Part shown: positions 17,651-19,525 of the stretch, one piece after another
Numbering within the stretch: position 1 is the stretch's first letter
Layout of the letters: each line of letters opens with the position of its first letter
Assembly: GCF_016433145.1 (NCBI RefSeq)
Contig: NC_058132.1
Span: 276,298,939-276,362,938, forward strand
Direction of reading: 5' to 3'
Length of the DNA: 64,000 nucleotides
DNA from: Gracilinanus agilis
Taxonomy: Eukaryota
The notes under the pieces: generated by a model
What the model was told of the DNA's origin: nothing
The model's input: the letters and a program-made list of their open reading frames with translations, nothing else
Database searches by the model: none
Program-made: the position numbers and the translations under genes

Positions 17651-17884
17651 CTGGCAGATGTGCCAAGGGATTTCCAAGAGTAGAAATCAAGGTATTCATT
17701 CTTTGAGAACTTAGGGGGAGGGCGCGTTATATTGTCCTCTGGAAATGTTGTAGAGAGTAGTTTTAGTACCTTCATGTCGTTACTGTCCAGTCCTGTTTGC
17801 ATTGTTGTTTGTGCCTTTGTCTTATTGTTGGTATTGTTATTTTTATTAGGGCCCCTGATTTCTTGGCCTTTTGGTTCAGAGAAC
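17651..17884 (+). pseudogene. Glyco-Gag-like N-terminal leader (CUG start, signal-anchor), in frame with gag
   Basis: 78 codons in frame with gag ATG 17885: LADVPRDFQE*KSRYSFF...VCIVVCAFVLLLVLLFLLGPLISWPFGSEN-MGQ; one in-frame TAG at 17681. Confidence 0.7.
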
Positions 17885-19525
17885 ATGGGACAGACAGAGG
17901 CTACTCCACTGGCCCTTATTCTCTCCCACTTCCAAATTTTCAAGGCCCGCACTCAAAATCTCTCTTTGCAAGTCAAAAGAGGGAAGTTAGTGACCTTCTG
18001 TAACTTCGAGTGGCCCACTTTCAACCTCGGATGGCCTAAGGGCAGCACCCTCCACAGAGACATCATTTCCAAAGTCCAGGCCAAAATCCTTGACCCCAGT
18101 TTGGAGGGCCACCCTGAACAGATCCCCTACATTCTTACTTGGTAGGACCTGGTCTTGAATTCCCCCTTTTTAGCTACAGCCCTATGTTTTCTCAGAGCCA
18201 GAGAAACCCGTCCATACCTTAGCTCTCAAAGATAAAAGGGAAGGGATGGGGAAACCCCAGGGTCCCTCAGCCCCACTGGTCCTGCCTGATTCCAATAGCA
18301 CCCCTCCTGATTTACCTGTACCACCACCCCCATATGCTCCCTTGTACCCTCCCTTAGACCCAGATGGGGGACAGGTGGAAGCTGCTGAAGCCACCCCACC
18401 ACTGGCTCACCACACTTGTGGTTGGGGCCAGATCCCCTCACCCAAACCCTAACCCCCATCTTCCACCACGGCCCTTCCTGTCCATACTGTGGGCCCCCTT
18501 GTCCCTGGAGGACCTTGAGTCCACCAATATTGGCCTTTCTCCTCCAGTGACCTCTATAATTGGAAGACCTAGAATCTCTCTTTCTCTGACCAACCTCAGA
18601 AACTTATTGACCTCATAGAATCCATTCTCTTCACCCACAATCCCACCTGGGATGATTGCCAGCAGTTATTACAGGTTCTTTTTACGACTGAGGAGAGGGA
18701 ACAAATCCTCCTGGAAGCCAGAAAGAATGTCCCTGGTGTGGATGGTCATCCCACTGTTCAGCCCAATCTCATCAAAGATGCTTTCCCGCTGTCACATCCC
18801 GATTGGGACTTTGACCAACTCGAAGGTAGGGAGCATCTCTGTGTCTATCGCCAGACTCTAATAGCCTGTCTCCGAGCTGCAGCCCAAAACCCTACCAATT
18901 TGACCAAGGTAAATCTAGTCAGAGAGGGACCCCATGAAAGCCCAGCGGTATTCCTTGAGCGCCTCCAAGAGGCTTTTCAATTATATACCCCATGTACCCT
19001 CAGGCCAACATCAGTAAGGCGGCTATGCTGTTGGTATTAATCAACCAGGCATCCCCAGATATCAGGAAAAAAGTCCAAAAGGGGGACAACTTTGTCAACC
19101 AGTCTATTAGTGAACTCCTGAAAGTGGCCGAATGGGTATACAATACCCATGAGACCCCTGAAGAGAAAGCTGAGAGGTTGCATAAGGAAGATCAGGGGAG
19201 ACTTGACAGGCTGTGCCTTGATGACCACCAGCAGGATAGAAAATGTCAGAGGGAAATGGTTAGGATAATAGCAGCCAGCATTAAAGCCCCTCTAACCCCT
19301 GGACCCACCACGGGGCCAATCCCTCCTGTTGACAACAGAGGATGCCAACGGCCAGCCCTTACAGATAGACAGGCCTCCACTCAATGCTTCTATTGCAAAG
19401 AAGAGGGTCATTGAAAGCGCAACTGCCCCTATCTGCGTCCCCCGAGATGTCAGTTGGGGGATAGTAACCAGCCCCCTAGGAACCACCCTGTGAAGATGTT
19501 GTTGGTCATTGCTGATAGTGATTAA
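17885..19525 (+). pseudogene. gag: gag (MA, p12-like region, CA, NC), with stops and frameshifts
   Basis: MGQT start; EWPTFNLGWP; PSAP, PPPY and [48 protein letters not shown]; ends at TAA 19523-19525. Confidence 0.95.

Follow-up and report, generated by a model that had tools for sequence, protein, structure and literature searches.

A probable fossil of a glyco-Gag-type reading frame in a family of opossum endogenous gammaretroviruses

Introduction

The glyco-Gag leader of MLV removes SERINC5 from the surface of the producer cell and thereby keeps virions infectious, and N25 of the MLV matrix domain (MA) is glycosylated. Shielding against APOBEC3, removal of SERINC5 and virus release are the candidate reasons for which gammaretroviruses keep glyco-Gag. 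The CUG of MLV belongs to a GACG stem that is needed for the formation of RNA dimers (PMC5120145). A putative glyco-Gag ORF has also been described for KoRV, where it was called ancient and widespread; its product was looked for in human cells and was not found, and the missing APOBEC3 of marsupials was already raised there, so that the marsupial glyco-Gag paradox is already in print for KoRV (PMC4528783). Further marsupial gamma-like viruses, distinct from KoRV, are the class I ERVs of opossum and devil (bioRxiv 2025.05.21.655229) and MEGrv1-3 (PMC11334065). The passages available from these two sources do not describe a glyco-Gag leader, and the string "glyco" occurs 0 times in the available text of PMC11334065. 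In the literature searched, which comprised few subscription papers and no supplements, we found no marsupial glyco-Gag case besides KoRV and no description of a glyco-Gag leader in opossum ERVs, of a conserved F-G stretch or of a leader uncoupled from Gag.

Results

The window analysed here, a stretch of 64,000 nucleotides from Gracilinanus agilis (NC_058132.1, positions 276,298,939 to 276,362,938), contains a full-length gammaretroviral provirus with two LTRs (16843-25435; this and all features below lie on the + strand), which is a member of the family that we designate A. The 5' LTR (TG...CA, 16843-17190) and the 3' LTR (25088-25435) differ by 16 mismatches in 346 columns, and a 4-bp target-site duplication, GTGT, flanks both ends of the provirus (16839-16842 and 25436-25439). 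From this LTR divergence, the age of the insertion was estimated at about 8 Myr with 0.30e-8 substitutions per site per year, the rate used for Monodelphis in bioRxiv 2025.05.21.655229. Eight of ten pieces of the provirus gave Pfam matches, which comprised MA, CA, protease, RT, RNase H, integrase and gamma-type Env. A primer-binding site, recognized from its sequence, is located at 17193-17210; we take it to be of the tRNA-Pro type. The start of gag with the matrix domain (17885-18145; Pfam Gag_MA, E 3e-26) ends in a premature TAG at 18143. The remaining gag with CA and NC (18146-19525) is broken by stops and frameshifts, gag as a whole showing 4 stops in three matched pieces in addition to the frameshifts. 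The pro-pol region (19526-23174) is likewise broken, with 13 stops in four matched pieces and three frames, and a gamma-type env remnant (23170-24971, approximate ends; Pfam TLV_coat, E 2.7e-69) is left in pieces. A SINE-like insertion is present in pol at about 20893-21009, and the same repeat family occurs elsewhere in the window. The sequence shows that this copy is dead and makes neither glyco-Gag nor Gag; it is as diverged and broken as its paralogues.

Upstream of gag, a frame in phase with the gag ATG (17885) is bounded by an in-frame TGA (17639-17641) and opens three codons 5' of a CTG (17651-17653; G at -3, G at +4). This CTG, a probable non-AUG start of a glyco-Gag-type leader, lies 234 nt (78 codons) upstream of the gag ATG. 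Downstream of it the frame reads LADVP and contains a TAG (17681-17683), the YxxPhi string YSFF (17693-17704), an ATG in weak context (17774-17776), a hydrophobic segment that is probably a signal-anchor (17795-17854, leader residues V49-P68, Kyte-Doolittle 19-mer 3.37), the junction SEN-MGQ and an N-L-S sequon at MA residue 25 (17957-17965). All of these letters, and TAG 18143, were found where the preliminary description of the locus had placed them. An open frame running from the CUG into gag is absent in this copy, which carries TAG 17681 and TAG 18143.

The 234-nt leader was compared with 3000 dinucleotide shuffles, made of the whole leader or in halves. A stop-free frame of 78 codons was obtained in 0.7-1.4% of the shuffles and a frame with at most one stop in 4-7.6%, and none of the 3000 reached a hydrophobic stretch equal to the observed one (KD19 3.37). 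A YxxPhi string within the first 45 leader codons appeared in 25-34%. These rates indicated that the leader frame and the hydrophobic stretch are above chance whereas the YxxPhi string is not.

A DNA search for the family gave 41 matches (40 of 46 candidates scored), and 15 distinct loci including this one cover the leader. The CTG is present in 13 of these 15 copies; 14 have G at -3 and all 15 have G at +4, and the in-frame stop four codons 5' of the CTG, the TGA of this copy, is found in 14. Tyrosine and Phi at +3 of the YSFF string are kept in 15/15 copies, and the sequon in 14/14 copies that cover the site. In contrast, TAG 17681 is restricted to this copy (1/15) and the second ATG at 17774 to two of the 15, so that both represent private decay and the ATG is no family feature. 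Among the 13 copies with both ends, six have a leader open in frame, four of them from the CTG; the interruptions differ from copy to copy, and the alignment of paralogues revealed no shared stop or frameshift between the CUG and gag. The glyco-Gag-type leader named in the preliminary description is thus supported as a feature of the family, to which the open frame belongs, whereas the TAG belongs to this copy. Over 1142 codons the leader frame contains 5 stops, compared with 50 and 34 for the remaining frames, and is similar in this respect to MA (8 in 1137 codons across the copies); the low stop count is, however, a single observation because the copies share one ancestor. The within-family dN/dS (NG86, 15 copies) was 0.67 for the leader, 0.71 for MA and 0.61-0.80 for the non-coding upstream region, and is uninformative because most differences postdate insertion. 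Since the CTG with its strong context, the frame, the hydrophobic segment and N25 are features of the family, the coding capacity of the parent virus probably included a glyco-Gag-type protein initiated at the CUG, as far as can be concluded from the sequence.

Ten further loci (L021-L030) share the LTR and the 5' leader with family A up to window position 17627 and then continue into unrelated, apparently non-coding sequence; several of them have a GACG-type hairpin of their own. They constitute a probable non-autonomous element mobilised by family A.

It had also been proposed that the ATG at 17774 could still give a short membrane-anchored peptide ending at TAG 18143. The corresponding open frame of 123 codons does exist and includes the hydrophobic segment. 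However, the ATG is found in 2/15 copies, has T at -3 and at +4 and is preceded by five upstream AUGs, and the locus is no less diverged or broken than its paralogues. The proposal of a live short peptide was therefore abandoned, and a membrane peptide from this locus that is useful to the host is extremely improbable.

A 5-bp hairpin capped by a GAUG loop (17652-17665, GA(C/T)G-type tetraloop) has the CTG at its base, and its in-frame reading is LADVP. Its geometry is that of the GACG hairpins in MLV-like and KoRV-like references, and the five stem pairs are kept in 15, 13, 15, 12 and 13 of the 15 copies. On its own the hairpin folds no better than shuffles (z -0.16); for the region 17560-17700 a z of -1.56 was obtained. 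Leader codon 2 encodes G in 0/15 copies and codon 4 encodes V in 3/15. Because the stem is kept while codons 2 and 4 vary, LADVP, which had been compared with the LGDVP of MLV, represents a homologous hairpin in the right frame and no conserved peptide; L, D and P would follow from the stem and the loop. As evidence for a protein, LADVP thus fails. LGDVP is itself no defining protein feature, since it is missing from reference L066, which we take to be FeLV-like as we take L063 to be BaEV-like. The reference viruses are named by likeness, except for L072, whose MA is identical to PDB 1mn8.

In order to compare the leader across related viruses, a protein search was used, in which 150 of 371 candidates were scored and 80 loci were fetched. 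With the window included, 69 of 81 loci have an ATG at the gag start; 66 of these were assigned to eight families (A-H) by their junction and 3 to none. One locus, L139, belongs to E by its junction and to F by Pol. A hydrophobic 19-mer (hydropathy >= 2) was found in the gag frame in 11/11 copies of family A, 9/9 of B, 3/3 of C, 2/2 of D, 15/16 of E, 8/9 of F and 3/3 of H. Seven of the eight families thus have an in-frame hydrophobic leader, the exception being family G (0/13). The N25 sequon is present in 11/11 copies of A, 6/9 of B, 1/3 of C and 2/2 of D and in none of families E-H. Neither the sequon nor the SEN-MGQ junction was retained as diagnostic: the former also occurs in reference L062, which is without an in-frame hydrophobic leader, and the latter varies among the reference viruses. 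Two of three copies of family C (L124 and L155) share an in-frame stop between the hydrophobic segment and gag, two codons upstream of the ATG; read from the sequence, this stop would likewise separate the leader from Gag. In 31/80 loci no match to pol was obtained at all, and many copies of families E and F (L089, L092, L094, L100-L102, L106, L119-L121, L129) have no pol within ~5 kb of the gag start; several E and F copies without nearby pol retain long open leader frames. Remnants of env were present in 20/20 loci tested, which makes a restriction at entry relevant to these viruses.

The leader might alternatively have acted as RNA and not as protein, the hairpin giving CTG and L-x-D-x-P and the U-rich tract giving the hydrophobic codons, with the frame being an untranslated relic in marsupials. 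The hairpin does account for LADVP. Families A and E show hydrophobicity of the segment whichever of the three frames is read (for the U-rich segment of family A in 11, 11 and 10 of 11 copies), and family G shares with references L062 and L074 an out-of-frame hydrophobic tract before gag. The within-family dN/dS of the leader (0.67 vs 0.61-0.80 for non-coding sequence) and the KoRV ORF product that was not detected in human cells (PMC4528783) are also compatible with RNA. In contrast, hydrophobicity is restricted to the gag frame in families F (8, 0 and 0 of 9 copies in the three frames) and H (3, 0 and 0 of 3). In family B, a CTG in G/G context recurs at -78, -75 or -71, so that the length changes in this family keep the frame. 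The related non-coding element keeps the LTR and the leader only to 17627, without the hydrophobic segment, and five families have, in the frame of gag, the Phi-F-G stretch described below, the codons of which vary synonymously. An RNA-only leader is therefore unlikely.

Coding signal between the families was assessed in frame-blind DNA alignments. Third positions differed more than second positions in 8/9 comparisons, and the excess reached p < 0.05 in 4/9, two of which were the same pair. The controls gave p <= 0.002 for MA in 9/9 comparisons and p < 0.05 in 2/4 reference pairs with glyco-Gag-type leaders. This sequence comparison suggested a cross-family coding signal that is weak but about equal to that of the references.

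The YSFF string had been interpreted as the counterpart of the MLV YxxL motif. In a global alignment YSFF falls over F-G-L-F of MLV, and the string GRVIL over GYVVL; beyond the first five residues the alignment of the leader with MLV was matched by 377 of 1000 shuffles. YSFF lies about ten codons upstream of the Y36 register of MLV, and in none of the 15 family copies is there a tyrosine at the three codons around this register. With the chance rate of 25-34% given above, the equation of YSFF with the MLV motif did not hold. No cytoplasmic YxxPhi common to the sister families was found, only scattered single cases. In family A, YSFF could still be a putative endocytic signal.

A Phi-F-G stretch, with which YSFF is in register, was found in frame with gag, 50-74 codons upstream of the AUG, in 6/11 copies of family A, 3/9 of B, 1/3 of C, 10/16 of E and 5/9 of F, as well as in 7/16 reference viruses including MLV- and FeLV-like ones. 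Its codons show varied synonymous usage across families and references. The wider pattern had a shuffle rate of 0.01-0.08 per frame and was picked after the sequences had been viewed. BLASTP of the leader against an MLV-like leader gave no significant similarity (E 15). In a profile-profile comparison of the cytoplasmic tails (six families in three frames), the best value was E 0.008 for family E, with 0.1 for family A, and a wrong-frame control reached E 0.03. A word-indexed protein search with leader plus MA as query returned 1 protein among 2046 candidates, and a HMMER search found 365, the best 150 of which were examined. Database proteins that extend 45 or more residues upstream of MA numbered 34, with a hydrophobic stretch in 29 cases, an F-G stretch in 6 and YxxPhi in 6. 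Among gamma-type ERVs the anchor is widespread, unlike the tyrosine motif.

In family G the hydrophobic segment lies in a non-gag frame in 12/13 copies (e.g. L126, L128, L134-L137, L141). In most copies this shifted frame opens ~69 codons before the gag AUG and ends ~26 codons into gag, forming a ~95-codon ORF that includes P-F-G-A-P and extends over the start of gag; it often begins at a CTG directly after a stop, in weak context. In family H, a relative of G, the homologous segment is in the gag frame. The sequences are consistent with either an inactivating frame shift in family G or a putative free-standing leader membrane protein. For MLV, the N-terminal 66 residues suffice for the effect on infectivity (PMC5120145), and the short upstream ORFs of XMRV are dispensable (PMC3423011). 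A loss of the in-frame leader through loss of env was ruled out, env remnants being present in 4/4 G loci tested. In references L062 and L074 the hydrophobic tract before gag is out of frame as in family G. The Monodelphis gene model P0319 encodes a G/H-type Gag, and the residues in frame upstream of it are not hydrophobic; it may share the shifted leader of family G, as far as a gene model alone can indicate.

The host genome was searched for the restriction factors concerned. The APOBEC3 profile search gave at least five matches among 11 candidates, corresponding to four distinct genes, and APOBEC3 was the best family for none of these four APOBEC-type genes in this genome (the counts are lower bounds). 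By best Pfam family and sequence, we take the four to be of the AID, APOBEC2, APOBEC1 and A5/NAD1 types, a set that resembles that of marsupials. An identical A5/NAD1-type deaminase exon occurs on contig C3 and on a small contig (L080 and L081), a duplicate that is probably assembly redundancy. Five multi-exon SERINC loci were found, and the largest has an exon reading C-C-F-C. A tri-cysteine pattern (CC-C) has been described for SERINC5 (bioRxiv 2025.10.27.684794), and by its sequence the largest locus appears SERINC5-like. The host anticipated in the preliminary description, without APOBEC3 and with SERINC or another factor as target, is in agreement with these results, since no APOBEC3 and a SERINC5-like gene were found.

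Instead of countering SERINC5, glyco-Gag could have been kept because it shields the core from APOBEC1 or APOBEC5 or aids virus release. This genome has A1- and A5-like genes, and the leader has no tyrosine at the Y36 position of MLV. Strand-biased, A3-like G-to-A change is carried by opossum gamma-ERVs and fits a deaminase; against this, the same source reports that opossum or devil A5 did not restrict glyco-Gag-deficient MLV (bioRxiv 2025.05.21.655229). Families E, F and H moreover keep the anchor without the N25 sequon, whereas the anti-APOBEC3 effect is tied to the level of glycosylation (PMC4528783). A role against these deaminases or in release is quite improbable.

The best named relative of the integrase is from Monodelphis domestica (64%). 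In a FastTree phylogeny of Pol, which included 60 of 120 integrase-relative proteins and retained 112 of 152 rows after the removal of 37 loci and 3 proteins with low coverage, the rows of this genome and Monodelphis were split from all others with support 1.0. An IQ-TREE analysis of 42 Pol rows (LG+G4 without mixture, rooted on the distant class I reference L173) placed the 19 marsupial rows, which were families A, B and D-H with Monodelphis, in one clade (100/99, 999/1000 bootstraps); family C was omitted for its long branches. The sister of the whole opossum clade was an ERV of Castor canadensis, P0186 (100/99), and both together were nested among eutherian viruses. This topology is to be read with decayed sequences as long branches, an outgroup of one long row and South American eutherians barely sampled. 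When the 120 best relatives were placed in an integrase tree (134 rows), the clade took in just two of them, Monodelphis P0184 and an unnamed protein. Two opossum genomes are represented in the clade. AU tests (23 rows) rejected the grouping of family A with KoRV/GALV-like viruses (p 6.9e-7), with MLV/FeLV-like viruses (p 9.6e-7) and with the beaver row (p 0.001).

The preliminary description had offered two alternatives: glyco-Gag kept in a host without APOBEC3, or a virus that had crossed from a eutherian host. A recent crossing is contradicted by the AU tests (p < 1e-6 for both the KoRV/GALV-like and the MLV/FeLV-like grouping), and because the Pol tree puts the family in a marsupial-only clade far from KoRV- and MLV-like viruses, a recent jump in the manner of KoRV can be dismissed. 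The alternative itself was drawn too sharply. The tree points to an origin in eutherians long ago, after which the viruses would have diversified in opossums. On the host side, the part that concerns APOBEC3 stands, as none was found, yet marsupials do have A1 and A5 deaminases.

The thin sampling of eutherians leaves room for selection in a eutherian reservoir: glyco-Gag would then have been real and maintained in APOBEC3-bearing hosts, e.g. South American rodents, and the opossum families would be separate spill-overs. The nesting of the marsupial clade among eutherian viruses with the beaver ERV as sister (100/99) and the precedent of KoRV are consistent with this, as is a sampling without the caviomorph or sigmodontine radiation. 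However, no named eutherian protein lies inside the clade among the 120 best integrase relatives, the grouping of family A with the beaver ERV was rejected (p 0.001), and the clade is common to two opossum genomes. Separate spill-overs are possible and, on this evidence, rather doubtful.

Discussion

The locus is best explained, with fair probability, as a fossilized accessory reading frame of the glyco-Gag type. In its anatomy, the leader quite probably resembles glyco-Gag. By analogy with MLV, a minority of the scanning ribosomes on the unspliced RNA would have started at the CUG of the hairpin and read 78 codons into gag. The hydrophobic segment would be an uncleaved signal-anchor, with ~48 residues on the cytoplasmic side and Gag on the luminal side of the ER, which would allow glycosylation of MA N25. 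Once expression is granted, the likeliest job would be the removal of SERINC5 from the surface of the producer cell, as for the MLV leader, and the chances for and against it are about balanced. Any endocytic tyrosine motif in use would be lineage-specific. The frame would go back to an old gammaretrovirus of eutherian type and would have persisted through a radiation whose families are today found in opossums only.

Taken alone, the locus is an ordinary dead provirus; of interest are the comparison across families and family G. A marsupial-only clade of eight families, mostly with an in-frame anchor, constitutes a natural experiment on the part of glyco-Gag that is selected in hosts without APOBEC3; in some of its families the MA sequon is missing, and in one the anchor is no longer coupled to Gag. 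The clade-wide retention hints that the protein is useful in such hosts. A more far-reaching proposal is that glyco-Gag was ancestral to a radiation which spent millions of years in opossums without APOBEC3 and hence was kept by SERINC5-type restriction and not by APOBEC3, and that the family G leader, once uncoupled from Gag, gave rise to an independent membrane protein of ~95 residues, so that a "simple" retrovirus would have acquired an accessory gene of the Nef/S2 kind. We offer this as speculation that is not likely to hold in full.

Among the known systems, the leaders of the FeLV- and BaEV-like references (L066 and L063) share with family A an open in-frame leader, 75 codons from CTG, with a hydrophobic end; the FeLV-like one also shares an L-F-G stretch and has no LGDVP. 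Glyco-Gag of Moloney MLV (gPr80; L072) shares the CUG in a GACG hairpin in frame with gag, the hydrophobic segment before the gag AUG, the S-E-N/M-G-Q junction and the sequon at MA 25. This likeness is one of anatomy read from the sequence. The Moloney leader comprises 88 codons, compared with 78 here, and its tail has no significant similarity; the family described here differs further in having no tyrosine at the Y36 register, a weaker basic flank before the anchor and a position in a different clade. The KoRV ORF shares the marsupial host without APOBEC3, an LGDVP-type start and the hydrophobic stretch. Its CUG lies 234 nt before the gag AUG by the coordinates given in PMC4528783, and the distance is 77 codons in the KoRV-like reference L061, the leader of which has no tyrosine. 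KoRV itself arrived recently from the GALV group; the family described here, in contrast, belongs to a deep opossum clade.
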